Shown: in pieces, positions 6,078-57,899 of the stretch
Layout: each line of letters starts with the position of its first letter
How positions within the stretch are numbered: position 1 is the first letter of the stretch
Assembly (NCBI RefSeq): GCF_036321535.1
Contig: NC_087436.1
Location: 14,818,001 to 14,882,000 of the forward strand
DNA: 64,000 bases
Source of the DNA: Camelus dromedarius
Lineage: Eukaryota
Reading direction: 5' to 3'
Notes under the pieces: model-generated
Told to the model about the DNA's origin: nothing
The model's input: only the letters and a program-made list of their open reading frames with translations
Database searches by the model: none
Position numbers and translations under genes: made by a program

Positions 6078-6203
6078 GGTGGGGGAGGAGGTAATTAGGT
6101 TTATTTATTTATTTAAAAAAATTTTAATGGAAGTACTGGGGATTGAACCCAGGACTTCGTGCATACTAAGCATGCTTTCTACCACTGAGCTATACCCTCG
6201 CCT
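6078..6203 (-). mobile_element. tRNA-derived SINE (camelid vic-1-like)
   Basis: gtactggggattgaacccaggac...accactgagctatacc; TSD aagagttaattt. Confidence 0.9.
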
Positions 6204-6441
6204 ACAGAAGAGTTAATTTTGGACTCCATAGAGTTTATATTCTAGTTGGAGAGAGAGAAAAAATGTTAGGTACTGTTAAAAACTAAGGCACAAGTTCTAC
6301 TAAGGAAATACAGCGGTGGTGGGGAGGAGGGCAGGTGGGCAGTGCTCGGTTAAGGGTGCTCAGGGAGGCCTCACGGACAGCACCGGAGTTAGGGAAGCTG
6401 CTGGGTTGCAATATTTTCACCTCTGCTTCTCCTTCACTGAG

Positions 6442-10683: not shown

Positions 10684-11329
10684 TGATACAGGAAAAAAAT
10701 GTGGGGTGAGAGGATGGCCGTGTTCCAGGTCTTGGTTGAGTCTGTGGGACACTCCCCCCAATCAAGTGAGGGTCCTTGGCTTCACTTCGGAAATAATTCA
10801 AGAGTGAGCCACAGTTGAGTAAAGGTAGATCTATTCAGAAAGATACACACTCTATAGACAGAGCGCAGGCTGTTTCGGAAGGCAAGAGAAAGGCCATGAG
10901 GTGTGGGAGATGGGTGTTCAGTTTAAAGTAAAAGTAGTTACACACTCCATAAACAGAATGCGGTCCATCTCACTCAGAATGGAGCCTGGCCACGAGGTGT
11001 GGGGGTTGTTAGTTCTATGAGCTCAGTACTTCATATGCTAACAAGTGGGAGGATTATTCCAACTACTTAGGGGAAGGGGCAGGGATTGCCAGGAATTGGA
11101 ACACTGACCTTTTATGGTCAGCCTCAGAACTGTCATGGCACCCATGGGAGTGTCATTTACCATGCTAATATATTATAATGAGTGTATAATGAAGCTCAAG
11201 GTCTACTGGAAGTCAAATCTCCTGCCATCTTGGGCCTCAAGACCTACTGGGAGCTGAATCTTCCAGCATCTTGGTGTTAATTGCTGTATCATTTCTTGAA
11301 TGGCTGTGCTCTGCTCTCTTCCTGTCTCA
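10684..11329 (-). mobile_element. ERV solo LTR, copy 1
   Basis: TG...CA ends (tgatacagg...cctgtctca); colinear with 15153-15772. Confidence 0.85.
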
Positions 11330-11777: not shown

Positions 11778-11830
11778 CTTCGGTGACATTATTGGGACAA
11801 ATTCCTTCGGTGACATTATTGGGACAAATT
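11778..11830. repeat. Perfect tandem duplication (26-bp unit, period 27)
   Basis: cttcggtgacattattgggacaaatt at 11778-11803 and 11805-11830. Confidence 0.95.
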
Positions 11831-15152: not shown

Positions 15153-15772
15153 TGATACAGGAAAAATGAATGTGGTGTGAGAGGATGGCCATGTCCTAGG
15201 TCTTGGCTGAGTCTGGGATGTGCCCCACCAAGTGGGGGTCCTTGGCTTCATGCAGGAAAGAATTCAAGAGCGAGCCACAGTTGAATAAAGGTAGACTTAT
15301 TCAGAGAGATACATGCTCCATAGACAGAATACAGGCTGTCTCAGAAGGCAAGAGAAAGGCCATGAGGTGTGGGAGTTGGGTGCTCAGCTTAAAGTAAAGG
15401 GAGATGCACACTCCATAGACAGAGTGTGGTCCATCTCACCTAAAAGGGAGAGCAGCCATGAGGTGTGGGGGCTGTTAGTTTGGGCTCAGTAACTTCATAT
15501 GCTAACAAGTGGGAGGATTATTTCAGCTACTTTGGGGAGGGGGTGGCAATTCCCAAGAATTGGGCCACTACCCACTTTTTGACCTTTTATGGTTGGCCCT
15601 GGAATTCTCATGGCCCTGTGGGAGTGCCATTTATCGTGCTAATATATTACAGTGAGCGGATAATGAAGGTCAGGGTCTACTAGGGATCAAATCTCCCACT
15701 TTTTGCTGCCCTGGTATTAATTGCTGTGTTATTTCTTAAAGCACTGTGCCCTGCCCCTTCCTGCCCGTCTCA
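15153..15772 (-). mobile_element. ERV solo LTR, copy 2
   Basis: tgatacagg...ccgtctca; near-TSD aaac/aagc; inserted into an older L1. Confidence 0.85.
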
Positions 15773-17125: not shown

Positions 17126-17301
17126 ATTATTTGCCACACAATTCCCAGCTGTCGGGTCCCCAGGGCTGAGAGCCAGAGGAAGAGTGGTCTGTATTCAAAT
17201 TCTTTGCCTAACATAATCCCGCAGAGGTGAATGCAGCTATAAAAACCGAAGAGAGGCTACTGCACTATTCGAAACAAAATGAGGAGAAAGATTTGGAAAA
17301 G
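17126..17301 (+). pseudogene. pseudo-exon: YLPHNSQLSGPQG*EPEEEWSVFKFFA*HNPAEVECSYKNRREATALFETK*GERFGK (frame ambiguous)
   Basis: Acceptor ttgtaatag (or ttcccag at 17148); aag|gtttgc donor; an alternative frame is stop-free (…SGLYSNSLPNIIPQRWNAAIKTEERLLHYSKQNEEKDLEK). Confidence 0.6.
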
Positions 17302-19755: not shown

Positions 19756-19901
19756 TTTATTTTATTTTGGGATTTTTTTTTTGGGGGGGGGATTAGGTTT
19801 ATTTATTTATTTATTTATTTTTATAGGCAGTACTGGGAATTAAACTTAGGTCATCGTGCATGCTAAGCTTGCACTCTACCACTGAGCTATACCCTCCCTA
19901 C
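19756..19901 (-). mobile_element. tRNA-derived SINE (camelid vic-1-like)
   Basis: TSD ccag(g/a)ataggttta. Confidence 0.9.
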
Positions 19902-19958
19902 CCAGAATAGGTTTAAAAAGACCAATGGAATAATTCAGGATTGAAGCCATCTGTTGCC

Positions 19959-20103
19959 GGAGGAGGGTATAACTCAGTGGTAGATCTCGTGCTTAGCATG
20001 CACAGTGTCCTAGGTTCAATCCCCAGTACCTTCACTGAAATAAATAAATAAAAAAAAAACTTAATTACCTCCCCCAAAAATGTAAAATTAAAAAAAATTT
20101 TTT
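19959..20103 (+). mobile_element. tRNA-derived SINE (camelid vic-1-like)
   Basis: gagggtataactcagtggtaga...ggttcaatccccagtacc; TSD aag(c/a)catctgt. Confidence 0.9.
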
Positions 20104-20380: not shown

Positions 20381-20539
20381 CTCTGAAAAGGACTCCTTTC
20401 TGAGAAAGCAAAATGAAAGATCGCAAACTTTTATTTTCCAGCTTTTCCAGCTGCAATCAGTGGTTTTCTGATAAACTCATTGGATTGCCTACTGGTCTCC
20501 CAGGGGATAAGAGGCAACAAGGCAAATCATTGCTTTCAG

Positions 20540-21369
20540 ACTTGATATTCTGCCCAAAAGAAAGTGGACGCCACTTGTGTCACCCCAGGGTTCTTGATCA
20601 GCAAGAAGAGAAAACCCGGTTCTGCTTGGACACACACCCCGAGCAGGGTGCATGCCATGAAGCCTTCAGGAAAACAGCCCACTGTGTGCTTCCGTGACAT
20701 GTGACCCTTCCAGGGAGGACCTCTCCTGACAGTGAGACGCTCTCAGAAATGAGCTCATCTCTGCCATCACAACAGGTTCCGAGGAGGAAGGAAGGGGCGA
20801 AGTATTGAAAGAATCCAAGGTAGCTGTGATGGACTTGATGATCCCAAACTTTAAAAAGACTCTTGCATAAGATTGAGAAAAAGCACGCAACCAAGAGTGA
20901 TTACAAGAGGCGTGTTGGGGGGAGGTGAGCTGAGGCTTGCAAAACACTTGTAAAGCTCACAAGGGACTTACAGATGTTCCAGATAAGATCAGGGAGGGAG
21001 AGACGGAGCTTACAGCTGCTGGTGAAATTGCAGCTTGGTGGCCAAAGGAGGCAGAGTTCAGAGAGACCAACTTCCGTCTGATTTCTCTGACAAAGAGAAT
21101 GGCGGGATAGAAGGCAGAGAGAACGAGCACTGGCCGGTCACTGTGGAAGCCGACCAGCTTTGGAGAAAAGTGCAGCTACTCTGAATTCAGATTTCAGTGA
21201 ATTATGTTGCAAGTTCCTGGGGCAACTTGCAGATGAGCTTGTGCAGTCATTCCTGGTCGAAATGGGAAGAATCTTAGAGAAGAGGAGTTGTGTTGGAAGA
21301 AGATGCTGGCCAGCATGTGTGTTTCTGTTTCAGAATGGAGAGGAAGTTGATTTTACAGGGTACAGACAG
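20540..21369 (+). pseudogene. large degraded pseudo-exon (or two exons) with a PAZ-like segment: ...VMDLMIPNFKKTLA...//...DFSELCCKFLGQLADELVQSFLVEMGRILEKRSCVGRRCWPACVFLFQNGEEVDFTGYRQ
   Basis: ttgctttcag acceptor; cag|gtaagc donor; purine-rich non-repeat sequence with several stops and frameshifts; possible internal donor gtgagc near 20925. Confidence 0.65.
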
Positions 21370-22079
21370 GTAAGCGGATTGTCCATCTTGGATAAGAGTT
21401 GGATATGGAAGGGTTAATTTGTGAGCACTTTGAAGAGAATGTGGGATCTTTGGAACACAGCACAGGGTGACAAGGAGCTCATCCCCCTCCTCTTTCCCTT
21501 CCTGTCCCTCCCCCTCCTCCCTCCCTATCCTCCTTCTGCCCTTCCCCCTCCACTTTCCTTTGGAATTCTTGTGCCAAAGTCCTGAGAAATCAACTGGTGA
21601 GAGGGAAACATGGCAGCAGAGTATGTCACTGTCATTTCTAGGATCCACTCTATAATAAGGATGCAGACAAAGTTCCAAGGAGAGGCAACCAACAACCACA
21701 TTACCCGGGGAATAAGCTGGGGATGTCGGGCTGGTGTGAGCACCAGTCAGCTGCGGAGGCCACCCTGACTGGTGCTCACACACTGGAGGGCCATCAGGTG
21801 GGAGCACACGTCTGCTATTTCCCTAGGACCCTGGCTTTCCAACTTGCCTGGCTGTTACCTACACTAAGAGTGACATTCGATATCTCAACCCAGAGTACAC
21901 ATAAACTCACGCATGTAAGAGACAAGCCTTTCAGAAAAATTATTAGTTTTACTATATTCAATTTATTTTTATATTTTCTATTCTACCCCATCCTATCCTC
22001 TTCTAGTCTATTCTGTCTTGTTCTACTTATTCTATTCTTTTCTTTTTTTGTAAAAAATGCTTGTTGGGTGCAAATGACA

Positions 22080-27039: not shown

Positions 27040-27175
27040 GTCTTTCCTCTGGAATCGATCTTGCCAAATTCTAGCTGCCTTTGGTTGTTGGAAACTGTCC
27101 CAGGAGGGCCTGAAAGGCAGCCTTGCCAGGGAATTGGCCCCACTGGTGTTGGCTGCTTGAGATAAAGTGTAGTGG
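27040..27175 (+). pseudogene. pseudo-exon (2->0): SFLWNRSCQILAAFGCWKLSQEGLKGSLARELAPLVLAA*DKV*W
   Basis: cctttccctttcccag acceptor; tgg|gtgagg donor. Confidence 0.7.
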
Positions 27176-27394
27176 GTGAGGAGGGGAGTGGGCTTATAAG
27201 TACTGGACAGAGTTGAGTTAAAACTTTGCTTATATAATTCTTTGTGCCTTGCCAATGACATGGGGAAAGGTTACATGGATCAAGAGAGTTTCTTCTGTTT
27301 GCTTTATTTTGTTTTTAACTATTATTTTGGAGAATTTTGAACATGTATAATATTTAGATACTATTATCCTTATTTTTTTGTTAGATATCTTTAA

Positions 27395-28312
27395 AAATTT
27401 TATTTTTTGTTGAAATGTAGATGATTTACAATGTTAGTTTCAGGTATAAAGCAAAGCAATTCAGTTATACATACACATACATACATATATTTTCAGATAC
27501 TTTTCAATTGTAGATTATTACAAGAAATTGAATATAGTTCGCTGTGCTATACAGTAGGTCCTTGTTGTTTATCTATTTTATATATAGTAGTGTGTGTCTG
27601 TTAATCTCTAACTCCTAATTTATCCCTCCCTGCCTTTCCCTTTTGGTGACCATAGTTTGTTTTCTATGTCCGTGAGTCTATTTCTGGTTTGTAAATAAAA
27701 TTTGTATCCTTTTTTAGAGTTCAAATGTAAGTAATATCATATGATATTTGTTTTTCTCTGTCTGACTTACTTCACTTAATATGATCATCCCTAGGTCCAT
27801 CCATGTTGCTGCAAATGGTATTATTTCGCTCTTTTTATGGCTGAGTAGTATTCCATTGTGTATATATACCACATCTTCTTTAACCAATTCATCTGTCAGT
27901 GGATATTTAGATTGTTTCTAAATCTTGGCTATTGTAAATACTGCTGCTATGGAACATTGGAGTGCATGTGTCTTTTTGAATTGGAGTTTTCTCCAGATAT
28001 GTGGCCAGGAGTAGGATTGCTGGATCATATGGTAAGTCTATTTTTAGTTTTTTGAGGAATCTCCATACTGTTCTCCATAATGGCTGCACCAGTTTACATT
28101 CCCACCAACAGCGTAGAAGGGTTCCCTTTTCTCCATACCCTCTCTAGCATTTATTATTTGTAGACTTTTTGATGATGGCCATTCTGACTAGTATGAGATG
28201 ATAACTCATTATAGTTTTGATTTGCATTTCTCTAATAATTAGTGATACTGAGCATCTTTTCATGTGCCCGTTGGCCATCTGGATGTGTTCTTTAGAGAAA
28301 TGTCTATTTAGA
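27395..28312 (-). mobile_element. LINE-1 3' end (ORF2 C-terminus + 3'UTR)
   Basis: Minus-strand ORFs [33 protein letters not shown] and [24 protein letters not shown]...DTCTPMF. Confidence 0.95.
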
Positions 28313-29020
28313 CTAATACCCTTGTTTTTAAAAGTACCCATCATCCTGCACCCAAAACCATAAACTCATGGTCAGTCTTGCCCCATCCATCTCTGATCCA
28401 CTCATCAGCATTTCTTGTACTATTTTGAGACAAATCTCAGACAAAGACCAGAGTCATCTGTCCAGAGAAACAGAACCAATAGAATAATCTCTATCTAATA
28501 TCTCTCTATATCTATAACTTTCCAATTATCTCATAAATGCCATAATTTTCATTTTTACAATTTGTTTATTTTAGTTAGGGTCAAACTAAGGTCTACATGT
28601 TTTGATTGGTTAAATATGTGTTTTACATCTCTTAATCTACAGGTTCCCCTAATAGTTCTCTCTCTTCCTTGCAGTGAAATTTTATAAAGTATCAATTTGT
28701 CCTGTAGAAGCTCTCACAGTCTGGACTTTGCTGGTAGCATTCTCTTAGTGTCATCCATTCTGTTCTTCTATCCTCTATGTTTTTTTGTAAGCTGATAGCT
28801 AAATTTAGAGCCTTAAACAGACATTTAAAGAGACATGTATTTGCATAATTTTAAGAGCTCACTGAAGAAGTCTTTATTACACATTCTGCAAACAAACAAA
28901 CAAACAAAAGCAAACAATTCTCTTCTATTAGCTTGCTGAGACCTAAAATTGCACTTCTAATAATATTTTGGTTTTAAAACTCAAAATACAAATACCCTTA
29001 GAAAAGGGAAAACTTATTAG

Positions 29021-29100
29021 GTCTTTATTCTTGAGGATGAATGCTTTTATGAGGTCCTTATCTGAGCCGGTTTCTGAAAGTGAAGGAGAGAAGGATGTTG
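29021..29100 (+). pseudogene. pseudo-exon (0->2): VFILEDECFYEVLI*AGF*K*RREGC
   Basis: Weak cttattag acceptor; ttg|gtgaga donor; phases fit both neighbours. Confidence 0.6.
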
Positions 29101-29199
29101 GTGAGAACACATGGGCAGTGGTGTGCATTTCATATCCAAGTGACAGTGGGACCACTATCGGGACAGAACAAGTTACAATAGGGCTCATCCTTAAAGCCC

Positions 29200-29420
29200 C
29201 CTCAGCTATTAAGCAGTTACAGTGCTATAGACCCCTGTATTCAGTGCTTGCAAGCAATTATTTTGTTTCAATCTTATAACAGCCCTGGGAAGTGAGTAGA
29301 ATTTATAGCCATTTTAAAGATAAGAACACTGAGGCTCAGCCAAGCTTAAGTAACTGGTTGAAGGTCATGCAGCAGGATTCCTCCCTACATTCTTGGCCCC
29401 AGTGCTCTTTCCACTAACTC
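29200..29420 (-). mobile_element. MIR SINE
   Basis: ccattttaaagataagaacactgaggctcag core. Confidence 0.65.
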
Positions 29421-30022
29421 GTAGCTGCCACCCTGGCCCCTACACTTCATTCCCTCCAGCTTTGGGCTGGCTTGAGAGGGGGTGATGAGACATGACCCCC
29501 TCACACGAGTGCTTTCCAGCCTCTGGTGTAGCCTGTTCCGGGACACATTCTGGGGCTCCTGCCCAGAGCTGGGCCATCTCAGATGGCGGTCAAGGATCTG
29601 CCCAGTGGCCTCTGAGTAACAAGCCTATTTTGTTTTGTTTCTTTTTTCCCACCACATCCTTTTCTGTGAAAGAAAATAGGAACACTATCTCTGGAAAATC
29701 AGCCTGCTGATTAGACAGAAAAGATGCTATGACTTCTGTGGTGCTCCCGTGAGTCAGCAGGATTTTCAAAAAGAAATTTTAATTTGTTTATGGCACAAAG
29801 GAAATTCTAACAGAATTTTTTTTAAAGAGACAGTCACCCAGAATTCCATCACCCCCATGAAATCAATTGTCTCCCTTTATTGGTGTTCCTGGTCAGTCCC
29901 TGACTGGAGGCATGAGCAGGTTTTCCAGTTCTGTTGGGTTCCTCTCTAAGCCCACAGAACAGTCAGAGGAGTGAGGAGAGACATCTGCTCTCATCCGCCC
30001 CTGATTCCTGGCCATTTTGAAG

Positions 30023-30148
30023 TTGCTCAATTTGAAGCATTAACCTGCAAGGGGCCAAGGAGAGGGACCATCAGAGTCTTACTAACTTACAGCTTCCTCG
30101 TTTTCTTCTGCTGGCCTCTTGGAGAACACAGCCATGAACCTTCATAGG
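30023..30148 (+). pseudogene. pseudo-exon (2->2): CSI*SINLQGAKERDHQSLTNLQLPRFLLLASWRTQP*TFI
   Basis: attttgaag acceptor; agg|gtagct donor; phases fit both neighbours. Confidence 0.5.
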
Positions 30149-31575
30149 GTAGCTCTTTCTTTTAAAAACCAGAAGAGGTGGATCAAAACTAGCAAAGGTA
30201 ATTGAGAAAGAAGAAGGAGAGAGAAACCAGCTACACCGCGCAAGCAGTTCTGATGTTCCTTAGCACCCACATCAGACAGAGCTGCAGCTCCTATTTCTGG
30301 GCAACTAAGACGTCATTATTTAGAAAGATGTATTTTGTATGCAATTTCAACATTCTAAGACAAAAGGAAGCATGTGGCACCAGTTGAACGTTGGCCCATT
30401 GTCAGCTGTTTATTCATATTATATCTGTTCCATGCAAGCCTGAGGTAGACCACTGTTAACCTTAATCAATTTCCTGCATATTTCAAGAGTTAAGTTATGC
30501 CAGGCACAATCTCTGGCTTCAGCCAGCTGAGAGGAAGGTGCAGGGCACTTACTCTCAGGACCTACATACAGTAAAACCTTTGAGGCATCCTTAAGGAGAA
30601 ATGCAGCAAGGAAAAAAAAAGTAAAGTTTTTGAAAGAAGTCATTTGTCTTTAGCCGAATTTATCTGGGTCTGATATGTGTTGCTGCAGACATAAAACTGT
30701 CTGGAGTCTGGCTTCAGGGTTTAGAATTATAAAATATTCATGGTGTATAATTTTGCATAATTTGTTTAGCTACCAAGACATAATTTAGTTATTTGGCGCA
30801 TGAATCCTTGGGAAGGCCTAAAGAAGAAAAAAACGGGCTTTAAGAGGCTGACTCCAGCTTTGATGCTAATATAGATAAGATGAACGTGCCCTGTAGTGCG
30901 CTGGGTGCTCAGCACACGTCAACACACACACACACCATTCGCGTGTAATTGATTTTTTCCCCACTGATCCTTAGCTCTGTTTTATCAGCCATTTTACATA
31001 CAAAGTTACCTAGTGTCACTCTGTGTGATTGCCAATAAACCCAAAGGAAAGAGCTACAGAACTAGTCTTTGATTTCAGTAAGAGGTGTTTAGATGATAAA
31101 ATTCCTTGAGTAGAAGGCTGATAAGAAAACAAGCATGATAATTTATTCAAAGAATTAATAACTGATCTCTGTGTCCGGTGCTGGGCTGAGCACAGACAGG
31201 TGTATTCGTCAGACGTGGTCCTTATCTCCGAGGGAGCTTTCAGTCTAGTTAAGACAAGACACATAAACAGGAACAACCGGATGAACCACCAGCTCACAGG
31301 CATTGTTTAAGCAAGTACAAACTAGCGTGGCAGAGCCCTCACACCGAGATGCAGAGGAAATGCAAGAGGAGAAGACAATGGATGTCTGTGCCCTCGTGGC
31401 CCCACCTAGGTCGTGGTCCTGTCCCCTGTCCCCAGTTCCCTGTGTCGTGGCATCCCCCAACTCCGCGTCTGCCGTCTGGCTCCTTCCAACCCGTTCTCCA
31501 TATTGATATAGCAGAGGATTGCTCTAAATGCAAATCTGACTGTGGTGTTTCCCTTAAACTTAAGAAAAAGTCCAA

Positions 31576-31720
31576 GGGGGAGTGTCTAGCTCAGTCTAGA
31601 GTGTGTGCTTAGCATATCTGAGGTCCTGGGTTCAATCCCTAGTACCTCCATCAAAATAAATAAACCTCATTACCCACCCTAAAAAAGAACTGCTTTAAAA
31701 AAAAAAAAGAAAGAAAGAAA
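31576..31720 (+). mobile_element. tRNA-derived SINE (camelid vic-1-like) inside L2
   Basis: TSD aagaaaaagtcca. Confidence 0.9.
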
Positions 31721-32019
31721 AAGAAAAAGTCCAGACCCTTTAGTTTGGTGTACAAAGTCCAGCCCCCACGCCCCAGGTTTCCTATAGAACCCGCCTTGCT
31801 TCCCTACCTCACAGCGTGTCTTCTCCTCACTCCTCACCTCCTTGCCAGCTCACCTCCAATTCCTCTTCAGTGTCAGCTTAGGCTCCCCTCCTTCTAGGAG
31901 TCTCCTGTAACTCCCTGAGAAGGGGCCAGTGCTCCCTGCTGTCCTTCATCACGCTGGAACCTTCCCTGGCCTACACTCACTACCCAGCGAGCTCAGAGTC
32001 AATAATTGGCAATCAATGA

Positions 32020-32410
32020 TGTGAGTAGGGCTCTGAAGTCAGACTTCTGGGTTTGAAACCAAGACCCATCATTTGCTTGTTTTGTAATCTTTTTTTTTTA
32101 ATTAAAGTACAGTTGACTTACAATATTATATTAGTTTCAAGTGTGCAACATAGTGATTCAATACTTTTATAGCTTATACTCCATTTGAAGTTATTATAAA
32201 ATACTAGCCATAGTCCCTGTGGCGAGCTTTGTAATCTTATGGTAAATTGCTTACCTTCCCTTTATCACTGTTTTTTCATCTCTAAAATGGGGATAATGAT
32301 GATACATATAACTCAGGGCTACTGTGAGGAACAAAGAGGTTGTACGTGTAAAAGTACCTAGACTGGGGCCTGGCACGTACTCTGTCCTCAGTAAACGTTG
32401 GCTGCTCTAG
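32020..32410 (+). mobile_element. MIR interrupted by a short antisense L1 3' end (~32090-32227)
   Basis: MIR motifs on both sides; TSD tttgtaatctt. Confidence 0.75.
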
Positions 32411-32834
32411 ATAATGCTTGCTTGTTAAGGGAATTGCGGGGATTTATGGCAGGTGTACATACATGCCCATACATGCACACATGTGTACATGCATTATCTA
32501 TAACACAGACTACTGTGTGATGTAACAATTACTACCGCTGTGACAATCACTGGTTAGTATCCCTCTTGGCACTGTAAACCCCTGCTCCCCACTGAGCAAG
32601 CTATGGCAGCCAATCCCAAGGGCTGACAATCAACACTTGGGCTTACTTACAACCGCCCCCAACCTGCTGTGGGGGAGACTCTATTCTCAAAGGAAGGGCA
32701 GGGTCCGGGAGTGTTTGTGGTTGTGACTCCAGTCCTGAGCACAGACCCTGGTGTGTGGACCGTGTTAAATACTTATTTTGTGAATGCATGGATGAACTGA
32801 GTTGTGTAAGGTTTCTTACAGGAACAAAATTTTT

Positions 32835-32999
32835 TTTAATTGAAGTATAGCTGGTTTACAATGTTGTGTCAATTTCTGGTGTACAGCATAATTTTTCAGT
32901 CATACATATACATACATACATTCCTTTTCATACTCTTTTTCATTGTAGGTTACTACAAGATATTGAATATAGTTCCCTGTGCTACACAGTAGGACTTTG
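32835..32999 (-). mobile_element. 5'-truncated LINE-1 inserted in a pseudo-exon
   Basis: taattgaagtatag...ccctgtgctacacagtagg; 16-bp TSD caggaaca(a/g)aattttt at 32819-32834 and 33000-33015. Confidence 0.9.
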
Positions 33000-33002
33000 C
33001 AG

Positions 33003-33054
33003 GAACAGAATTTTTGAAAGAGCAGAAAAAAATGTAGGATTGGGTTTGTCAGAG
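33003..33054 (+). pseudogene. pseudo-exon (2->0): NRIFERAEKNVGLGLSE, disrupted at its 5' end by an L1 insertion
   Basis: Original acceptor tttcttacag at 32821; exon start duplicated as a TSD at 33000; gag|gtaagt donor. Confidence 0.75.
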
Positions 33055-33794
33055 GTAAGTGGGGAATCTGGTCCTGCCTGAGGGAACAGCATGAAGGGGT
33101 GGAGGAACAGAGTATGAGTGGGATCAGGCAATGGTACCTGCATTTTTTGTGCTGTAGGAATCATTTTCTGTGCACAATTATGACTTAAACCCACACATAC
33201 GGAGTGCCTGACTGGAGAATATAGCTGGCTTATTACAGCATTAAAAGCAGGGCAGTAAAAATAGAGATTAGAAAATGCACAACGGAAGAACAGTAAAAAC
33301 CAGAAGTCTACATGTAAGCAAAATAGCTTTGATTGCAGAATGACTACCATAAATTTGTAATTTCATATGAATTTTAAAGCTAACCTTTTACAGATTTTAA
33401 CAGTAATACATATTCATGGTGGAGAATTTGAGATGTGCAGAAAGGCAGACAAAAAATAAAAATTACCCATAATCCCACCCCTAAAATAACCACATTGATG
33501 TAGTTATGCCTCTAGTTGGTTTTTTTTTTTTTTTGGCCTGTGCACATGTCCATCATTGAATATAAAATTTTGCATCTTTATCCCTTTGTTGTCAGGAATA
33601 GCCTGGTCCAAATCTGTCATTCTGTGTTTAGTTTTGTTGCCTAGGCACCTGGAATTGCAGGCAGGTTATTATAACAGGGGTCTTGGAGCCATTAGGGGAA
33701 AGTCTGCTCCCTGCTGGGCCTTTAGTGGCTGGGGACAAGCATCTCTTTGCTGGGAGAGGCCACTGGTCACTGTCAGATGCAGAACTATTTCTAG

Positions 33795-33993
33795 GCAGCC
33801 CTTGGCTGGCTTCTGGTCGTGTATCCTGAGATGACACCACTTCGACAGCCAGGGCCCGCTGGGACGCAGCTTGCTTTGGCTCCCTCTCTCAGCTTTGGCC
33901 TTCTGGCCACTGGGCTTAACTATTGGACTTTTGATGGTCTTGGTGGCTTCGTGGAACCTCCTCTAGAGTGTGATGACCCAGGGCCTGGACTTG
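33795..33993 (+). pseudogene. pseudo-exon (0->1): AALGWLLVVYPEMTPLRQPGPAGTQLALAPSLSFGLLATGLNYWTFDGLGGFVEPPLECDDPGPGL (internal compensating frameshifts possible)
   Basis: ctatttctag acceptor; weak gtggat donor; phases fit both neighbours. Confidence 0.55.
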
Positions 33994-34003
33994 GTGGATG
34001 GAC

Positions 34004-34006
<3 letters not shown>

Positions 34007-34038
<32 letters not shown>
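34007..34038. repeat. (TG)n microsatellite
   Basis: Seen directly. Confidence 0.95.
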
Positions 34039-34041
<3 letters not shown>

Positions 34042-35161
34042 TACAAGCGGGCATGTGAACCCAGGGTTAGTGCTTGACTGTCCCTGGCCTGTAGTGGAGG
34101 GGTAGGTTGAAGGCACCTGCCCCCACCCACTTCCCTGCACAGGCTCCACTCCTGGCCCCACCAGAGATTAGATAGAAATGAGACCAGAATTCTATGCCTA
34201 GGACCAGGGTTCACAAGTGTGGACTGACTTTAGAAACAAGGGGACATTCCAGATGTCACAATGGAGCTGTGATGTCACACCTGGCTTAGTGGCTCTGCTT
34301 CTTCACTCCAAGTCCCAGAGTGGTAGGTTCCAGCTGCTGAATTCCCACTGGGCTGAGGTCACAGTTTGTCCCGAGCCTGCACCAAGACTGAGTTTGCGGT
34401 GGGTACCTTGGTGAGAATCAAGGGACTGCAGGACCGAAGGGGCGGGGGGTCATTCCCAGCAAGAAGAGGTTTTAGAAATTATCATCCATCTCCCCACACA
34501 ATGTGAGGATCCCTTCTGTAAATCTCCCAGCAGAAGATCACGAAGCAACTCCTTGGACATGTCCAGCGACAAGGGACTCATTCACGCACTCATCATTCAG
34601 AATGATAGGCAGTTCTCCCACATTAAGCTGAAATAAGTTTTGGGGACCATCTATCCAGATACCCTCATTCTGCCAGGGAAGTAGCCCACGGAGAACCCAG
34701 ACTGGCCCTATTGACATCTGGGCAGCCCTCTTCTTCCTTCCAAACCAGGAGTGAACATTCTGCCCACCTCTGAGTGCCAGCCTGGCATAGAAGCAAGGCT
34801 GGGATGGATCCAAGGACAATGTAGCTGCTACCAACTCTGGTCACAGTGGATGTGGGGGTTTGTGTTATGGCAATAGAGGCAGGTGTGGGATAAAGCCCAG
34901 AGCCAGCAGCCCAGCAGGACCAGAGAGACAGAACACAGTCACCCCTCTGGGTGGCTTTAGCCTGACTGGATTAGGCTCTTGCTGAAATCAGAGGTGACTC
35001 CCTCCTCTGCATCAGGCAAAATGTTGGTTCTTTTTGTCATAAAGCACTATTAAGAAATTTCAGGACTCCAGGAGACTTCCATAAAACAGAACTTCTGCTC
35101 CTTTATTCTCTAGGCACAACAAAATGATAAAATTATTTAGATATTACCTTATTTGTTTCAG

Positions 35162-35352
35162 CTCTCTACTTTGAGTTAATTTTTTTTTCATAAGTCTCAG
35201 CAAGTTTTAACCCTTCCCTTTCTTTTTGGGAGGTTGGCATATAGGTTCCGGTCGCAGTGGGCCATTGGCTTCAAGGTATCTGACCCCTTTTATCATATTT
35301 GGGGCAGCAATAATTGGTGGGTGTGGTATTTGATCACAACCCATTACTTCGA
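35162..35352 (+). pseudogene. pseudo-exon with +1 frameshift in a poly-T run: LYFELIFF/HKSQQVLTLPFLFGRLAYRFRSQWAIGFKVSDPFYHIWG...
   Basis: ttatttgtttcag acceptor; gtaagg donor; removing one T from the run at 35180-35188 opens the frame and gives the phase the next exon needs. Confidence 0.65.
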
Positions 35353-35611
35353 GTAAGGGTTTCCCAGGCAGGTCACTTCCTGTTCTTTTGTAATGACTTT
35401 AAACAGCAAGCAATTTTCCAACTGTGATTTCTCCCATCAAATTTGTAAGCATCATACATACCATTTATTGCAGTAAAATATAATTTAGTCCCCAGAGATA
35501 GTGCATACACATTTTGGTGTGACTCTAGAATAGTAGTTAAAAGTTTCAATGGGTTACTTTGATCATCTTCCATCTTTTCCCAAGAAAGAATTAAAGTGTA
35601 TCTTTCCCAAG

Positions 35612-35767
35612 GGAGTTTCAGGACCACATTGAATAACTGACCAAAGACCTCTCAGAACTCTATCATAATCTGCCTGCAGATGAGATCAAGTTGGAAACCA
35701 TCCCATCCTACATAAGAAAAGCAGTTTCCAGCTTAGAGCAAAGAGGGACAATTCTATTGAAGGTCAG
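35612..35767 (+). pseudogene. pseudo-exon (2->2): EFQDHIE*LTKDLSELYHNLPADEIKLETIPSYIRKAVSSLEQRGTILLKV
   Basis: tctttcccaag acceptor; cag|gtaagt donor; single TAA at 35634-35636; strongly protein-like. Confidence 0.85.
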
Positions 35768-36062
35768 GTAAGTTGATTTTAGTGAGGGTGGTGATGAAGA
35801 AGTCTCCGGGCTTTTGAGCAGAAGTGCAAAATCCCTAACTTGGTTGTTAAGGAAGATCTACTTGAAGAAATATCAGATGACTGGAGGCAGAGAGACCATT
35901 TATGAGGTGTATTAGATAGGCCACAGGTTAGCTGTTGTAACAGAGAAACCCCCAAAGACAGTGACTTAATAAATGACACTGATGTCATATTCTGTATCTT
36001 GTTTGGTGTGATGGTTTCATGGGGGTGTACACTGTCAAAACTCAGTGAACGGATCCCTTCAC

Positions 36063-36590
36063 TGTGGTATATTTATGCAATGGAATACTACTCAGCCATA
36101 AAAAGGGTGAAATAATGCCATTTGCAGCAATACGGATGGACCTGGAAAATATCATTCTAAGTGAAGTAAGCCAGAAAGAGAAAGAAAAATACCATATGAT
36201 ATCACTCATATGTGGAATCTTAAAAAAAAATGGGAAGAAAAAAGAAACAGTAATGGACTTATCTACAAAACAGAAACAGACTCACAGACATAGTAAACTG
36301 ACTTATGATTCCAGGTGGAAAGGAAGTGGGAAGGGATAAATTGGGAGTTCAAGATGTACAAATACTAACTACTATATGTAAATTAGATAAACAACAAGGT
36401 TTCTGACCATTCTGCATAGCACAGGGAACTATATTCAGTATCTTGCAGTAACCTATAATGAAATAAAATATGAAAACAACTACATGTATGTATTGTATGA
36501 CTGAAATATGCTGTACACCAGAAATTGGCACATTGTAACTGACTATACTTCAATAAATAAATAAGAAAAGAAAAGAAAACAAACAAACAA
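36063..36590 (+). mobile_element. LINE-1 3' end, within an older MLT1-like LTR (~35905-36900)
   Basis: caatggaatactactcagccataaaaa...aaattggcacattgtaactgactatacttcaat + A-rich tail. Confidence 0.9.
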
Positions 36591-37517
36591 ATAGACATTC
36601 ATTTCTCTCTCACCTAATAGTCCAAAGGTGGACAATTCAGTTGCAGTTCTGTTTTGTGGTCAGTTGGCTCCACTATCCTGAATCCGTAACTCCATCTCTG
36701 CTGTCTAGGAAAGGGGACGATGGTGAAGGAAATGCAAGGAAATTGGCTTGTCTTCAAGCTGAGGTTAACTTGGATTTGGACGCATTGCTTCTACTCATAT
36801 GCCATGTGCCTAGAGTAGATCACAAGATGAAATAAAAGATCGAGAAATATAGATCTGAGCTGAAAAGCCATGTGACCAGCTGAAATTCCAGAGGATGAGG
36901 GGGTCTATCTCAGTGCAGACAGAAGATATGGGAGAATGATGCTGGAAAGACCTGGGAGATCTACCCCCCAAGAATGGTCATGGTAACCCATGATCCATGC
37001 CAACCTTGACACAGAAGGGCAGTCACTGGAGTCATTCAGGGACAGAACCGACCCAATTGTGTCCCTGTTTGGATGCAGGGACAGAGCTAAGGAGAATTAC
37101 AATTGGTTATTGGTTACAGTTGGTTGGAGATGATGGGTCAGGAAACAGTGGAGCCGTGATGGAAATGGGGAAACCAGGAGGACAGCTGGTGTGCTGGGGC
37201 GGGGCGGACAGAAGAGATGGCCAAGGGATACTTAGCGTCTCTATCCTTAGAGATGTTTAATAATAGAGGAGGCAGCTGTCACTGTTGTCTAGGGTGCGGC
37301 CCTGCCTGAAACCAGGGAGCTAAACGCAACAGTTTTTTCTGACACAGAAGGTTGAGTATTTTGAAGGTAAAACAGAGCAGGAGCTGGTGGCCGAGCATGG
37401 TTGAAATCTCTCTCGCCATCAGAGCGCCCAGCATGATGTCTGCACCTCAGCTTTCTCCACTGACCATTGGAAATCTGCAGAGTGTCCACCACGGGCTTAT
37501 CGCCACCTCCTCTTTAG

Positions 37518-37597
37518 CACAACCCACATCCTGCCCTTTCCTGAATCCATGCTTCTTAAACCCCTGGCACAATCCATTTTATGACCATTACTGGGCT
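37518..37597 (+). pseudogene. pseudo-exon (2->1): TTHILPFPESMLLKPLAQSIL*PLLG
   Basis: cctcctctttag acceptor; gtatgc donor; phases fit. Confidence 0.7.
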
Positions 37598-37880
37598 GTA
37601 TGCTGCTTTTTAAAATACAGTGACAGCAGGACAAATCAAGAACATGTGTTTGATTGTTAGGCTCTGCAGTGGGCTGGGGGAGTTCAGGAATGGGGAATAA
37701 CTGAGGGGTCCTGGGCTTTAGCAAAATGATCAGAAGACAATATACGTCACGTGTGTGTTGCTTGCACCACATTGCTGTTCAGCCCCTTTGTTGTATAAAC
37801 GGAGAGCAGTCAGCTTTCTCATGGAGATTAGAAAGGCCAGAAAGGCACTGACTGCACATCCTACTTTGTTACTTTCTCAG

Positions 37881-38092
37881 CTACTCCTGAAGATGCTTGG
37901 GAAATAGATATTTGTTCAACTAATAACCATTTCAATTTAATGCAGTGTCAAGCATTTGCATACATATTCCTCCAGCAAAGGGTGACCTTTAACCAACCAC
38001 CTCAAACCTCCCTGCATGTACCCCCCCCATCAGATGCAGGTGTTTTTCTGATTAGTCAGGAATTCACAAGGCTTATGCCAACTATAGGAAAT
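37881..38092 (+). pseudogene. pseudo-exon (1->0): TPEDAWEIDICSTNNHFNLMQCQAFAYIFLQQRVTFNQPPQTSLHVPPPSDAGVFLISQEFTRLMPTIGN
   Basis: tactttctcag acceptor; gtgagt donor; 70 stop-free codons; phases fit. Confidence 0.7.
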
Positions 38093-38429
38093 GTGAGTGT
38101 GATTTATCAAGGTGTGGGAACTTGGATACATCTTTTGACTTCTCTGGGCCTCAGTTTCCTCATCTGAAAATGGGTGTGGAAACTAGATCAGCTGATAGCT
38201 GAGAACATTTCACAGCATTCAAATTCCATGATTCTCTCTTAAATTGTGCTTGTCCTCTAGATATTTTCTCAGACATCTGAGTTTGCCACTCCTCCACTTT
38301 CCTTTGGAGGTAACAGAGCAGTCTCTATAATGTGTTTACCAGTCTTTGGTGAAAGCAATTCACATAATCTTGGTTTGGTTAGGGATATGAGCATGGGTAT
38401 TAAAGCAAATGATCTAACAGATAAGATAC

Positions 38430-43500: not shown

Positions 43501-46489
43501 TGCTGTCACACTCAATAGGTGGGTGAAATGCAGTTGTGCGGCCTCCAAGGATCCCCTTGTAGGGGTCCCATTAGGGACGACCAGTCCAGGACTAAGTTCC
43601 CCATGAGATGTCAGTGTCAGAAGGAGGGGCTAGCAGGGCCAGAGTGGACAGGTGGTGTTTGGGGAAGAAAAGTGACCAGCCAGGCAGGTAGCCAGAAAGA
43701 ACCAAGAAGAATTAGACACAGGCAGAAACCCCGTCTGAGAACTGGGGCTCCAGCACTCTGATCTCAGCACATGGAAGCCCAGTCTTACAGGGCAGGGGCA
43801 GCCAGGGCCCCCTGCTAGTAAAGGTGGCCTTGAGCTGTAACAAAGGTTAGGCAGGGCTGTTGACCTTGCAGTCAGGCCTGAGCCTGAGGAAGAGGGCTGT
43901 GAAGCTGCTGGAGGTAAGTTTTGATCAGATTTTCTCAGTGTGAAGACCTTGAAGGGTAGGTCAGAGGTGGTATCGGGATAGGAGGAGCACACAGTACGCA
44001 TTTCCCCAGGCCCAGCCCTCAGCAGATATTTGGCTCTGTCCCCCAGAGAAAATTCTAGCTAAAACCCAAACTGCTTGTTGATTAGCAAATATGAACAATG
44101 TACAAATTAAACCACCTGCTCCTGTTGAATTAATTTAGGTTATACTGGGGCTGGGGCGGAGCGGCTGATGGTTAGTTAACACAATCATGCAAATTAACCC
44201 ACGCCTGGCTTCCAGGCAGCTCCCCACTGGCCACAGCAGGGGCCCTAAGGGAAATTAGGCAACAGACCTTAAAGAAAGCAAAAATCTCTGCTTTGTCTGT
44301 TCTGACAGTTTTCAGCTACTTTCCACAGGAGTCTTTTGGGGAGAATATTCAGTACCTTTTCTTCTTGGTCCAATAATACAGGAAGCAGAAAATAAAAAAT
44401 CGTGGGAAAGAATAATGCAACCATCGGTGTCCTGGGCCAGTGTCCCTCTGGTGAGCGGGTGATATTACTTCTGTGTTTCACATTTCTATGTGGGTCCCTG
44501 AGACTTAATTCTGAGAGCCATTCTCCATCAGGTGGGTTATTGAACATTGCCAAGAAGAGACTAGCCCGGACTTCCTTGGGTGATGGGGGCTGACTTCCAG
44601 GACACAAGGGAAAGGAAGAGGGTAGGACACCTTTTCCTCATTAGCCACAGTTGTTCAGGGTTTCAGCTCGGTCAGGACTAGAGAGAAAAGAACCTGAGTT
44701 ATTTGAGGTGTAGGCTGAGCCCACACCCATCATTCAGATTCTCCAAGAGAGACGTCTGATGGGTTCTGCCTGTCACAGAACACCCAGATTGGGCTAAGAT
44801 TGTCAAGCCTCCTCATGACCAGTCTGCAGTGGTTGGGGCACCAATCCCAGGTATCATCAGTCGTGGCCCAGGTAGCATAACTGGTCTGCTAAATAAGAGT
44901 ACAAAGCTGGAGACACAAGAACGCTGTGCTTCAGAAAAGCGTTCTTCAGAAGTGGGCTGAGGGCACGGTAGACCCTTACCGGATCGCAGACCCAGCTCCA
45001 GAATACATACCTCTGCGATTTTCCCCCTTGCAGGGTGGGTGAGCGTTGTGAGAGACACGTGATCGCTAACTTCAGATGGGTGAGGCAGGTGGTGAAGATG
45101 GCAGGGGATGCAGGGGACGGAAGTTCATCCCAGCTTTTCTCACCCTGGCCTCTTTGTCCCCACCTCTGGATTCCTAGTCCCACCTCATTCATAAGGAGAA
45201 AGGTGGTGGGATGCGGTGGGAGCAACTAAGAGGACCGATTCCCTGTGGGCGGGCTCTGGCCTCTGCAGAGCTGCCTTGGGTCTCACCCTGTGTGCCCCCC
45301 GGGACCACCTGTCTGTCTGCAGCCATTTTCTCCGGCAGGACAAGCACCGCCATCAACAGCACCAACGGGCGAGCAGCAGCTTCATGGAGAAGAACCACTG
45401 TAACTCCCTCTGCGACGGGTCAGCTCTGCTCTGCGACGTGTCGTGGTGGAAGGCGCGGGGCATTTGGACACGTGTGAGAGATGGGTCGGGGCCCCAACTT
45501 TAAATGTTGCCTTGGCTCCTTATTGAACTATCTGTGAAAGTTTTGGAGGGTCACCTAACCTTTCTGATGCTTCGTTGCCTTCTCTGTAAAATCAAAGTCA
45601 TAACCTGACCTTAAAAAGTGTGCCAGGCACCCAGTGAAAAATTCAACTATAAAAGCATTTTGTAATTCTACACTATCATAGAAATGTTTTGCTTCAAACT
45701 TACTTTTATGATTTTTTTTTTTGCTCATTATGGCAGGAAGTTTGGTTTTCTTTATTCAATACTGCAATGCTGTGGAAAAAATAGGAAAAAAAAAATCAAG
45801 ATTACAATTTCTATTACAGATAAAAGCTCAGATGCACAGACAATGAGTTGGATACTGTTAAGCCCTTCTCTTAACTAGATATTCCAGTCTCCATCCAGTC
45901 GTTGACCATTGAGCTTGTCCTCCAGGGATCCTATCAAACAAAAGGTATTAGCATCGGAACTTCACTTGGTTTTAAAGTTTGCATCACATCCTGGGGGGTT
46001 GTGGCGTGTTATGCTGAACGTACGGTAGGTTGCGTATAGCATTAATTCATTTTTGTTAAACACCTTGAAGAGGAGTGATTCGGCTGCTGAATCTATGTGT
46101 TGTGGTTGCGTGTAAATAAACACACAGATCAAATTTAGAGCTGACCTGGAGAAGTCGGTGACGGATGTCCCAGCATCATATCAGTGGAGGCAGTTTGATT
46201 TTTTTAAACACTCTTCTGAAACGTCCTGCCCCTCCTCCTGGGTAATTTGTCTGTCACTTTCTGAGTTCCAGTTCCCTCCTGGCTCTGTGAGCAGCGTCAA
46301 AGCCTGAATTTCCCTACAGGCGAAGGCACAGAACCATAATCCTCCACAAACAGCAGCTTTGTTATGCTTGAGGTAGAGATGCTGAAGGTGGGCCATATAT
46401 CCTCACAAGAGCTCCAGCTTGGTCTGAAGGAATCCTGATGGGCTGTGCGGCACGGGCCTCTGGTCGGCTCTGTGAAGAATGCGTGGTAG

Positions 46490-46806
46490 GTGAATTTTTT
46501 GCTGGGGCTGCCGCAACAGAGTGACACAGACTGAGTGTTTTGAACAACAGAAATGTATTTTCGTCCAGTTGCGGAGGCCAGAAGCCCAAGAGCAAGGTGT
46601 TGGCCGGGTGGCGTCTTCTGAGGCTTCTCTCGTTGGCTTGTTGGCGGCCGTCATCCGTCCGTGTCTTCACCGCGGTCTCCTCTAACCTTCTCACGAGGAC
46701 ACCAGTCAAATTGGATTACAGTTCACCCTAATGGCCTCCTCTTGAGATACTGGGGGTTAGGACTTCAACATACGAATTGAAGAGGCATATAATTCCTCTC
46801 ATACCA
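46490..46806 (-). mobile_element. MaLR LTR (MLT1B/C-like)
   Basis: aacaacagaaatgtatt...ggaggccagaagcccaag...gggggttaggacttcaacata. Confidence 0.75.
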
Positions 46807-47154
46807 GTAGGAAATTGTGCTTTTGGTACAGGACATCTATTCAGCGGATGAAAACCGTTTTTTCTTCCCAGATTCCTAAATATCAGTTTTGTCCTACAGC
46901 TTACAGCTTTTTCATCCTCATTTCTAAATTTCTAACCTCATTCTAGGTTTTTCCTGGGCAGGTTCTGCTGTGATGGAAGAGAGCTTCTCTGACCTGAAGA
47001 CCCTAAAGAGGCTGTGTACAGCCCCAAATTATGCTGGTGAAAGAGGATCTTGAAAAGGAGCACACCTGGGGGACATGGGCCATGAATTCAGCCTGAGCCA
47101 AACTCTCAGGTCCGTGTAATAGCTACCGAGTCCCAGGAGCTGAAGGGCTACCCG

Positions 47155-54652: not shown

Positions 54653-55399
54653 AGTGGGTATCTGTGAGTGAAGAAATTTGAGTGGAGCTAAAAGAATTAC
54701 TAAACATTTCATTGTTATTATTACTGTTATAATTATGACTTAGGATGCATTTTGCCCTAAATGACTCAGTTCTAATCCAGCCATCTGGAATGCTAATCTC
54801 CAAGGTTTCTGGAACAGAACCGGCCGATTCTGGGCCACACCTGGTGTTCAGAGCATGTCAATGCCTCCCTTCTAAGCAGAGTCCTGGTCCTGAGAGCGTG
54901 CTGACCTGGCCCTCCAAATGGCTGGTTTGTAAATTCTCTACGCGCTGATGTCATTATTTGTGTCCATTCAGCATAAGGTATGGGTGATGAGATCATCTAA
55001 ATTTTATTTGGGGGGAGGGGGAGGCCATTAAATTCTTTTTGAAGACATCAAATAAATAATAATAGCTTTGCCAGAATAAGAGTTTTAACGGTGGGACAGT
55101 GCGTCACATTTTGATTTATACGGGAAGAATAAAAATAGCCCAACAACAATGGGAAATTATGAGAAGTGCCTAGTGAGCGTCAGGGAAAGCCCAGTGGGGC
55201 TGTAAAGGGAAGTCAGCGCATATCCAGAGGCCACCTTCCGCTGGCATCTGCACGTGCCTATCTTCCTGGGGCCGGCACCTCCTGGTGCTTGATCAATACT
55301 AGGTAATTGATTGATAGAAAAAGATAAGCTGAACACAGAGCTGCAAACCAAGACTCTTTGCTTTGAATATTTAAAGACGTCTGAATATAAACCTTCCTG

Positions 55400-55835
55400 T
55401 GTCACAACAGCTTAACTTTGGAGCAGGATAGAGAAGACCTGGAGCTCGGAAGCGGGTCCGGGCGTGTTGGGTCTGGTCCTCAGAGGAGGGGATGCTGACT
55501 GGGCTGCTGGCAGCCAAGGAGCTTGGAGGAGGGAGCCCAGGGCGCTGGGAATCAGCAGAGCGCTGCCCTGCTGCTGCTGGTCCTTCTGAGAAGCAGGAAG
55601 ATGCGTTCTGGGAGGGCAGAGCCCACTGCCGCGGTGGAGGTGAGGAGCCGATGCTAGGTCATCGGAGCAAGTCCTCTTCTTCCTCCCACCTTCCAGTCTC
55701 CTTCTCATACTCCTTGTGGTTAGAACCTTCCGGCGAGTCATGTGGGAAAGGAGTAACACATCTGCAGCCCTCGGCACCAGCGTCGCAGAGCAGAGTTTGG
55801 AGGCTGGTTTTGGCATCTGGAGATGGCCACTTAGT
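55400..55835 (-). mobile_element. ERVL LTR (LTR33/LTR16-like)
   Basis: Minus strand gaaggttctaacc...ggagactggaaggtgggaggaag followed by cagcagcagcag resembles LTR33-type consensus (recalled). Confidence 0.5.
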
Positions 55836-57899
55836 AGTAAGCACCAAGGACTACAGCCCGAGGTCCCGCCCTCCCATCTGTCAGAATAATCGGGGGAGGG
55901 ATCAAATCTCAGCCTATTTATAGCCCATTGGGGATTAGACCCATTGGGCAGTGCTGGGTTAGGGGCTTCACTGTCAGCAAAAAGAGATGAGCTAGTGTTG
56001 TGGGGAGAGGATGCTGTGTGAGGAGGAAGGGGGACACGGTGGACGCCATGAGATGAGGGGACAGAAAGAACGCAGTGTTTGAACGTGTGTGCTGGAGATC
56101 AACTGCCAGAGCTAAAGGCAGGTGCCAGCCCTGAAAGCTCCCCTGACCTGGGGCGAGCGACAGCCTTGCTGAGCTGCTGGGGCTGCCGTGAGGCTTAAAT
56201 GAGATAATGTGGGTAAAGTGCTTAGCCCAGCACTTGTTACCGGGGTAAGCATTCAGTAAGTGTTAGTCCCAATTATCGGAAAATTCGTGGAACTCTTTCA
56301 CTGCTCTTCCCATGATTGTGATGACTGTGCGCACACATGATGACTCGTTTCCTCATTCTGACAGCTCTGTGATGCCCAAATTCCACATCGGATGCAATTT
56401 GATCTGGCCAGTTAGAGAATTCAAAGCTGATGGGGAAAATGGGTCTACCCAGGGTCATTTCATCCTGGAAGACTGTCTCCTATTCTAATAAACAGCATGG
56501 CTCTGGCCCATGTGACAAAGACAGCTCCTCTGGTATCTGGGAGCTTAATTTTCTGTGTGGTTGGAATCAATACAACTGTCCTTTACTTATGAAAAGTAGT
56601 GTTACAGCAGTCATCGCTCAGGACCTTATTACTACTCTTGGTGACGCTGGGCATCTAATCAAACATGCCATTACACATGGGCTGGCTTTATGGCTTGCCT
56701 CGGAGGCACCTTTCTCCAAGACAAGGTGGTGTTTTTAAGTCACTCCAGGGCCAGGGATGCCACCCATGGGACTGGCACAATAAAAGCCACCTTGGACTGT
56801 GAGCAAACTGTCAACATTTATCTCCTGGTCTTGGACTTAGGTACCATTCCTGTCCTCCATATCCAGCTGCTGTTCTTGAACTTCAAGTTTTACCTTCGGC
56901 CTGAACAGTTGGCAACTCCCTCGTGTTACCTGCTGTTTTGCCTCAGGTCTGATGCTCTCATCCCTGACCCGTGCTCTGCCTGGGTCAGTTAGTGTGTGTA
57001 CGTACCTGGGCAGGTACCAGGATGGAGATGATCTTCCTTGTTTATTTGAAGGTACCTAACATCTCATCATTAAAGATACATTGCTTTAGCCCAAGGTATA
57101 GAGCTTGGGATGTGAAGAGTTTTTACTTGGAGAGGGGAAAGTCTTTCCTGATGAAGTTATTTGGGAAATATTGAGTTAAACATGGTGAAACAGGTTCCCT
57201 TACCCCAGGTCTCCTCTGAGCTGTTAAGATGTTGACGTTAACTGTGACCCTGCAAGAGAGAGAGTATGAAAAAGTTTCTCAGTATTATGTGCGCACCAAC
57301 TCATTTAGTGAAGGAGTAGCGCTTGGGACTGGAAAGGATTGCTGGGTTAGCCATTAACTCTTTGTTGTGACCTCTCTCTCTCTCCCCCTCTCTGCCTCTG
57401 TCTCTTGATCTAGGTGTCTTCTTTCTAGACAAAAGTACTTCTGGAAGGACTATATATCAAATCACAATCACTTAAAGAGAATTTGCCCGGTTAGTTTCCA
57501 AGCATTGTGGGTTTTTCCTGTGCAAAGACCCTCATCACTGTCTCTTCTGTTCTATCTCATCCCGGCCGTCTGCCTGGGCTTGGTTGCATGAAGGAGGTGG
57601 ATTGGAAGGGACTGATGTGGGAGACTTGGCTCCTAAGCCACCTCAACTCTCCAACCTTCTGTTTTATTTCTTATTGTGTTTCCTCAGTTACCAAACTTCT
57701 GACTTTTCTGTCCCTCTCCTGCGTCCTCCGGCCCATGCAGGGTGACGCAAGGGTGAGCTCCTCTGGCTTGCTGCCTGGTCTCCCCTTCCTCATCCCCTTC
57801 TTTCTCAGGCCCAGTTGCATAGTTACTGATTTGGTTTAGATGAAGAGAATAGCACATTGGTGATGCGGAGGTCCTTGTGCTGATCCACCCGGGCTTCGT

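Follow-up and report, generated by a model that had tools for sequence, protein, structure and literature searches.

A probable pseudogene remnant with one extended-Tudor-like domain in the dromedary genome

Results and Discussion

We analyzed a stretch of 64,000 nucleotides (nt) from the genome of Camelus dromedarius (NCBI RefSeq assembly GCF_036321535.1, contig NC_087436.1, positions 14,818,001 to 14,882,000 of the forward strand), hereafter called the window, and focused on positions 27040-38092, where a first-pass annotation had read a C-terminal array of extended-Tudor-like segments. Extended Tudor domains (eTud, T3; Pfam TUDOR, PF00567) occur in proteins of the PIWI-interacting RNA (piRNA) pathway, such as Drosophila Tud9-11, SND1, Vreteno, and mammalian TDRD1, TDRD6, TDRD7, and TDRD15. 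With a probability of roughly 55%, we read 27040-38092 as what is left of an unprocessed pseudogene, the last part of which still shows a single readable extended-Tudor-like domain. Support above chance was confined to the last unit, at 37432-37900, and comes from hand-written sequence patterns.

Candidate Exons and the Spliced Model

Six peptides quoted in the first-pass annotation were found as read on the + strand between 29021 and 37578, namely VFILEDECFYEVLI*AGF at 29021, FERAEKNVGLGLSE at 33013-33054, AALGWLLVVYPE at 33795, EFQDHIE*LTKDLSELYHNLP at 35613, RGTILLKV at 35742, and ILPFPESMLLKPLAQSI at 37528. They occupy three genomic frames with stops and lie 0.1-4 kb apart, over about 9 kb in total. 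Two other quoted strings exist only by splicing: FERAEK...VVYPE is not contiguous in the genome and requires a splice from 33054 to 33795, and GSTPEDAW, found in 0/6 frames, requires a splice from 37597 to 37881, with a weak donor of 1.6 bits and an acceptor of 8.9 bits (all splice-site values are from hand-written splice matrices). An acceptor marks the limit at 27040 and a donor that at 38092, so the annotated model is a spliced one; the phases of its pieces were mutually consistent.

The main candidate is a decayed exon at 37348..37597 (+), with an acceptor of 8.9 bits and stops at 37402 and 37582, which would hold a possible helix, a barrel start, and a proline motif. It is followed by a candidate exon at 37881..37981 (+; acceptor 8.9 bits) that begins with TPEDAW and would provide the P...W of the extended-Tudor tail (tail score 24/24); this second exon could extend to a GT at 38092. 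The pieces upstream, from 27040 to 35767, may have been additional exons of this gene, and we claim no Tudor identity for them. Nearest to the main candidate is a piece at 35612..35767 (+; acceptor 7.7 bits), running from EFQDHIE to RGTILLKV, which is amphipathic-helix-like and contains one TAA. It has two donors, at 35762 (phase 0, 7.4 bits) and 35767 (phase 2, 12.8 bits), the phase-0 donor connecting it to the Tudor-like frame of the 37348 unit, and its Pfam slices contained no Tudor family. Its 44-residue open part at 35637 received a language-model recognition value of 2810, above 91 of 100 shuffled proteins, and had no match.

Farther upstream, a candidate exon start with a weak acceptor lies at 33795..33860 (+), with no donor of at least 3 bits within 33700-34000. 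A 52-nt AG..GT unit at 33003..33054 (+) has a donor of 11.8 bits and an acceptor of 3.2 bits located within the second copy of a target-site duplication. The 80-nt unit at 29021..29100 (+) shows three TGA stops in 26 codons of the annotated frame, another frame being open, and its acceptor (-3.5 bits) falls below background. The first piece, an AG..GT unit at 27040..27175 (+; acceptor 14.6 bits, donor 7.5 bits), carries no cited motif. Together, the candidate exons amount to 758 nt or 252 codons as cut, and to about 1 kb or about 350 codons at their most generous.

The spliced model contains at least six in-frame stops: 29021-29100 has three, 35612-35767 has one (at 35634), and 37348-37597 has the two noted above. 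It yields no intact protein and is not a working gene. A functional gene whose product binds methyl-arginine on PIWI proteins through two or three extended Tudor domains had motif resemblance in its favor, but the stops, a broken barrel, and the failure to find a second barrel speak against it, as does the presence of 0 of 10 open frames in a collection of 15 billion proteins. Only independent assembly errors at several positions could rescue such a gene in this genome, and we give it almost no credence.

These pieces could also be old, real exons that belonged to a spliced non-coding RNA or to a gene without Tudor domains, with an incidental likeness to Tudor. The strong splice signals at 27040, 33054, and 35767 and the recognition value of the piece at 35637 are in keeping with this origin, but no other fold was confidently matched and the top pattern evidence favors Tudor, and we regard it as improbable.

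Tudor-Like Motifs in the Last Unit

The peptide HDVCTSAFSTDHWKSAEC at 37432 lies in the same frame as ILPFPESMLLKPLAQSI, 96 nt upstream of it, and fits the pattern written for a Tudor barrel start, with C at 37441, F at 37453, D at 37462, W at 37468, and A at 37477. Downstream of ILPFPESMLLKPLAQSI, a TGA occupies the consensus Cys position and is followed by L and G. We scored these features with gap-tolerant ordered patterns. Barrel start plus proline motif reached 57, vs. 44 for the next site, a score attained in 5 of 150 whole-window shuffles. With the tail included, under cautious spacing and with G..P...W allowed either contiguously or across a GT..AG junction of 70-1500 nt, the score was 74 at 37528 (37432-37900), vs. 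61 for the next site, and was reached in 0 of 200 whole-window shuffles (mean 61.1, standard deviation 4.1, maximum 73). The three-part scan selected the annotated junction from 37597 to 37881 unaided.

The barrel start was not cited in the first-pass annotation, so its placement is a partly independent check. With pattern versions v1-v3, it was the top site of the window (1 of 127,996 positions). The probability of finding it by chance 75-180 nt upstream of the proline motif was P = 0.0001, 0.001, 0.00007, 0.29, and 0.01, and P = 0.003, 0.027, and 0.0005 with further pattern versions; hence, for the expected 106 positions, P was <0.03 in seven of eight versions.

An extended Tudor domain comprises a Tudor barrel of about 60 residues set into an OB-fold/SN extension. 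The putative domain is visibly decayed. Its second barrel half is out of frame and short, with 16 residues between A 37477 and I 37528, and by the assumed spacing the barrel lacks about a dozen codons. A VHHG at 37484..37495 (+), seen by eye in the neighboring frame, stands where the D-Y-G turn would be expected and is not among the D-Y-G top scores. The entry-strand and helix patterns scored at background. The annotation had warned that the aromatic cage could not be read clearly. F 37453 is retained, but W is followed by K, no D[YF]G occurs, and the cage is not intact. An excerpt of PMC4152741 describes the eTud cage as four aromatic residues and an Asn.

The ordered motif tests thus lend statistical support to one extended-Tudor-like unit, at 37348-37981, and this unit is a broken remnant. 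The array of two or three domains was not confirmed, as the next barrel-plus-tail score (44) was below the shuffle mean of 48. On the + strand from 14000 to 37400, the best other barrel start scored 28, at 30667, without a tail. The candidate exons, at 758 nt to about 1 kb, leave room for two units at most, each of about 180 residues, the size given for Tud9 (residues 1978-2160) in the excerpt of PMC4152741.

Chance as an Alternative and the Database Searches

The whole assembly of motifs could instead be ordinary intergenic or intronic DNA that was never a gene, in which pseudo-exons at chance splice sites were loosely fitted to Tudor patterns. We take this to be a considerable possibility, and the observations that follow weigh against a Tudor remnant. 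Strong AG..GT pairs were equally frequent on both strands (71 on + vs. 71 on -), and phase-consistent chains as good or better were found in 7/9, 5/9, and 7/9 control stretches under three settings. An excerpt of PMC1935003 puts pseudo-exons at perhaps ten times the number of real exons. The donor at 37597, on which the tail depends, is the weak one.

The pattern evidence has its own weaknesses. The ordered patterns were written by hand after the DNA had been seen, and the whole-window shuffles control for position, not for the number of families that could be fitted. With version v4, which has a fixed long spacing (P = 0.29), the barrel motif was not significant. The proline motif alone was equalled or exceeded at 25 positions, the pattern scan for the D-Y-G half of the barrel failed at 37348-37597, and the strict hallmarks W[YHFN]R and D[YF]G were found in 0/6 frames of the whole window. 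An ungapped test of five patterns, which allowed no gaps and omitted the barrel start and the tail, stayed at background: equally good results came from 5 to 9 of the 9 controls and from 32 to 54 of the 60 shuffles. Moreover, a spurious Pfam match to Phenol_monoox at 37501-37596 (+; E = 8e-05, 23.1 bits, cut-off 27) places an unrelated bacterial family on the same 32 residues, which indicates that noise can score well here.

Database searches brought no support either, and every piece is without a family, structure, or protein match. The Pfam check proposed with the annotation gave no TUDOR match in six read-through frames (0/6) or in sets of slices (0/19, 0/27, 0/23, and 0/10). These runs accepted E values up to 10 with the HMMER filters on; their input was neither spliced nor frameshift-aware, and they had no decayed Tudor as a positive control. 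Sequence searches of the PDB returned a Tudor chain in 0/6 cases and otherwise chance matches to a designed TPR, histone H2A, and heparinase. Single-sequence folds were uninformative, with predicted local distance difference test (pLDDT) values of 37.0 and 50.1. A parent, an orthologue, and an N-terminal domain were all looked for without success; the searches of the two large protein collections covered the upstream candidates and the wrong frame of the last exon, not the Tudor-like frame of 37348-37597, so their lack of matches says little about that frame.

Indeed, the 105-residue frame at 37343-37657 is a neighboring frame and not the Tudor-like one. Word-based searches among longer proteins with this frame, with 21091-21369, and with P0003, a short predicted protein described below, gave no matches. 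A TDRD10-like reading of the 105-residue frame was dropped because it had no match in the Pfam, PDB, or protein searches. A protein atlas held no usable match for two open frames. In metagenome scans, 0/70 candidates were confirmed in the first and 2/591 in the second; these two amount to a single chance match of 21 residues and lack any similarity to the window at the DNA level. A literature search found no publication on such a locus.

Two results speak against chance. The ordered three-part score leads the window by 13 points and exceeds all 200 shuffles, and the barrel start is located where an independently chosen motif of the annotation predicts it. As to Pfam, cage-less extended Tudor domains below its threshold exist, as reported in excerpts of PMC10711660 and of PMC4152741 (Tud10); the lack of a Pfam match for decayed sequence is thus compatible with a Tudor origin.

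Genomic Setting

The window has 39-51% G+C and low CpG, with no CpG island, as in mammalian DNA. No intact known gene was seen near 27040-38092; among the 373 open frames of at least 55 residues in the window, excluding those wholly inside 27040-38092, none (0/373) reached the Pfam cut-off, which is also what DNA that was never a gene would give. A codon-usage scan of the window tracked G+C only.

Repeats that recur within the window cover about 19% of 27040-38092. An interspersed repeat with several copies, presumably the 3' end of an L1 element, lies at 27382..28307 (-) according to nhmmer self-comparison, which also placed a member of the same family in the opposite orientation at 36061..36622 (+). 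A short copy at 32833..32999 (-) is inserted directly before the 33003 unit: here, a 160-nt repeat fragment is flanked by 19-nt direct repeats (32816-32834 and 32997-33015, 89%), and this insertion at 32816-33015 duplicated the acceptor of that unit. A repeat origin of the motif pieces was rejected, since none of them overlaps any repeat found within the window.

Rfam tRNA matches at 6128 and 19963 identify tRNA-derived short interspersed nuclear elements (SINEs). Another tRNA-derived SINE, at 31570..31704 (+), matches the copies at 6087-6204 and 19955-20097, both Rfam tRNA-positive, and we take it to be of the camelid type. An inverted SINE pair (19778-19897 and 19962-20080, about 65 nt apart) is 79% complementary over 121 nt. 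Two same-orientation copies of a 0.6-kb element, which we assume to be long terminal repeat (LTR)-like, lie at 10684-11324 and 15153-15763; at 81% identity, they are too diverged for the two ends of a recent insertion. A perfect 27-nt tandem duplication occupies 11778-11830.

Downstream of the locus, CpG-richer patches at 45001-47000 and 55001-56000 (observed/expected 0.43-0.55) gave no Pfam matches, and several long open frames were seen at 45195-45500. An AT-rich block at 44060-44260, with the octamer ATGCAAAT at 44187 and homeobox-like sites, is presumably enhancer-like.

Upstream, a purine-rich and protein-like stretch at 20442-21369 (+) is bounded by an acceptor of 9.1 bits and a donor of 11.5 bits. 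A profile-free search of 20382-21371 against 1.84 billion proteins returned two matches, the repeat artefact P0001 and the short relative P0002. P0002 and P0003, both short predicted proteins, match 20600-20867 at 68-70% over 37 residues, crossing the frames of the window, and end about where the window has stops. Such end points fit related DNA of another mammal and are no evidence of coding. Either a large decayed exon of the gene proposed here or neutral DNA that another mammal has in common with the window could account for the stretch. Farther upstream, a 138-nt AG..GT unit at 17164-17301 (+) appeared RRM-like by eye; this reading was dropped, as Pfam gave no match in three frames.

Words of 28400-38300 were present in RNA sequencing runs. 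In a study of reproductive tissue, their share was 0.28-0.34 in three of four runs and 0.05 in the fourth; in another study, it was 0.30 and 0.26 in two runs guessed to be RNA, and three small runs gave 0.01-0.03. Since these shares far exceed what the candidate exons, less than one tenth of the stretch, could supply, they point to intronic RNA or DNA carry-over and were counted as no evidence.

Comparison With Known Systems

The unit at 37348-37981 resembles extended Tudor domains in its order of barrel start, proline motif with the following Cys position, and G..P...W tail, as judged by the hand-written patterns. It differs from them in having stops, a frame break, a short second barrel half, and no Pfam match, and in being a single unit. 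Unlike the scaffolds with multiple extended Tudor domains (TDRD1, TDRD6, TDRD7, TDRD15, RNF17), the locus yielded no second unit in the pattern scans and its spliced frame is not intact.

A possible likeness to TDRD10 comes from short hand-written patterns, which the pieces at 29021, 33795, and 35612 resemble in the order expected for TDRD10. The three patterns, formulated post hoc, were unique in the window and were reached by 2/100 shuffles for the helix, 0/100 for the tail, and 16/100 for the entry, a rarity that means little because the patterns had been fitted to the data. Unlike TDRD10, the locus is accompanied by no RRM pattern in the window and no Pfam RRM match, and a conserved neighbor gene was not found in the window. 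TDRD10 combines one T3 Tudor domain with an RRM and is of unknown function, as stated in an excerpt of PMC12147562.

Ordered AG..GT pieces on one strand, stops, a frame break, and later repeat insertions are features that the locus shares with unprocessed mammalian pseudogenes. Unlike such pseudogenes, unitary or duplicated, it gave no parent or orthologue in searches with the upstream candidates and a neighboring frame of the last exon. A Pfam match, a cage, a tandem array, and an open frame were all sought and none was found, so we do not class the locus as a member of the TDRD family; it is probably a pseudogene remnant that resembles this family.

Proposed History and Significance

If the locus is a pseudogene remnant, its intron-like, repeat-strewn DNA would retain, on the + strand, the decayed exons of an unprocessed gene that is now dead, and 37348-37981 would formerly have encoded one extended-Tudor-like domain. 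By analogy with Tud, SND1, and Vreteno, the ancestral protein may have been a germline scaffold that bound its partners through the Tudor unit. These partners would most likely have been methylated arginines of PIWI-type or other nuage proteins, or other partners if the domain was cage-less; methyl-arginine binding could be ascribed only to such an ancestor. The gene would then have lost its frame and, by the assumed spacing, about a dozen barrel codons, and would have drifted since, a later repeat insertion having hit the acceptor of the 33003 unit. The present-day sequence has no role as a protein.

More specifically, the remnant might be a unitary pseudogene that annotation has missed, derived from a multi-exon germline Tudor gene that is not among the listed mammalian TDRDs; we consider this rather unlikely. 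The gene in question was perhaps a paralogue of the TDRD10 type, with two Tudor-like units and a large internal exon at 20.4-21.4 kb of the window. It would have disappeared in camelids or early in placental mammals, with intact copies persisting in some other vertebrates. In that case, the vertebrate piRNA-pathway toolkit would gain a new member, and the gene loss could be dated.

If the motifs are due to chance, the locus is a caution about how persuasive an ordered motif fit in spliced mammalian DNA can look. As it stands, the finding is of modest interest, a putative fossil of a well-known domain type without a protein product. Losses of TDRD genes are of interest in themselves, some of these genes being dispensable, such as Tdrd15 in the hamster, a gene absent in the mouse (PMC12548254). 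Should the pseudogene reading be true, it would point to a vertebrate Tudor gene beyond the annotated mammalian TDRDs, findable by synteny in a lineage where it is intact.

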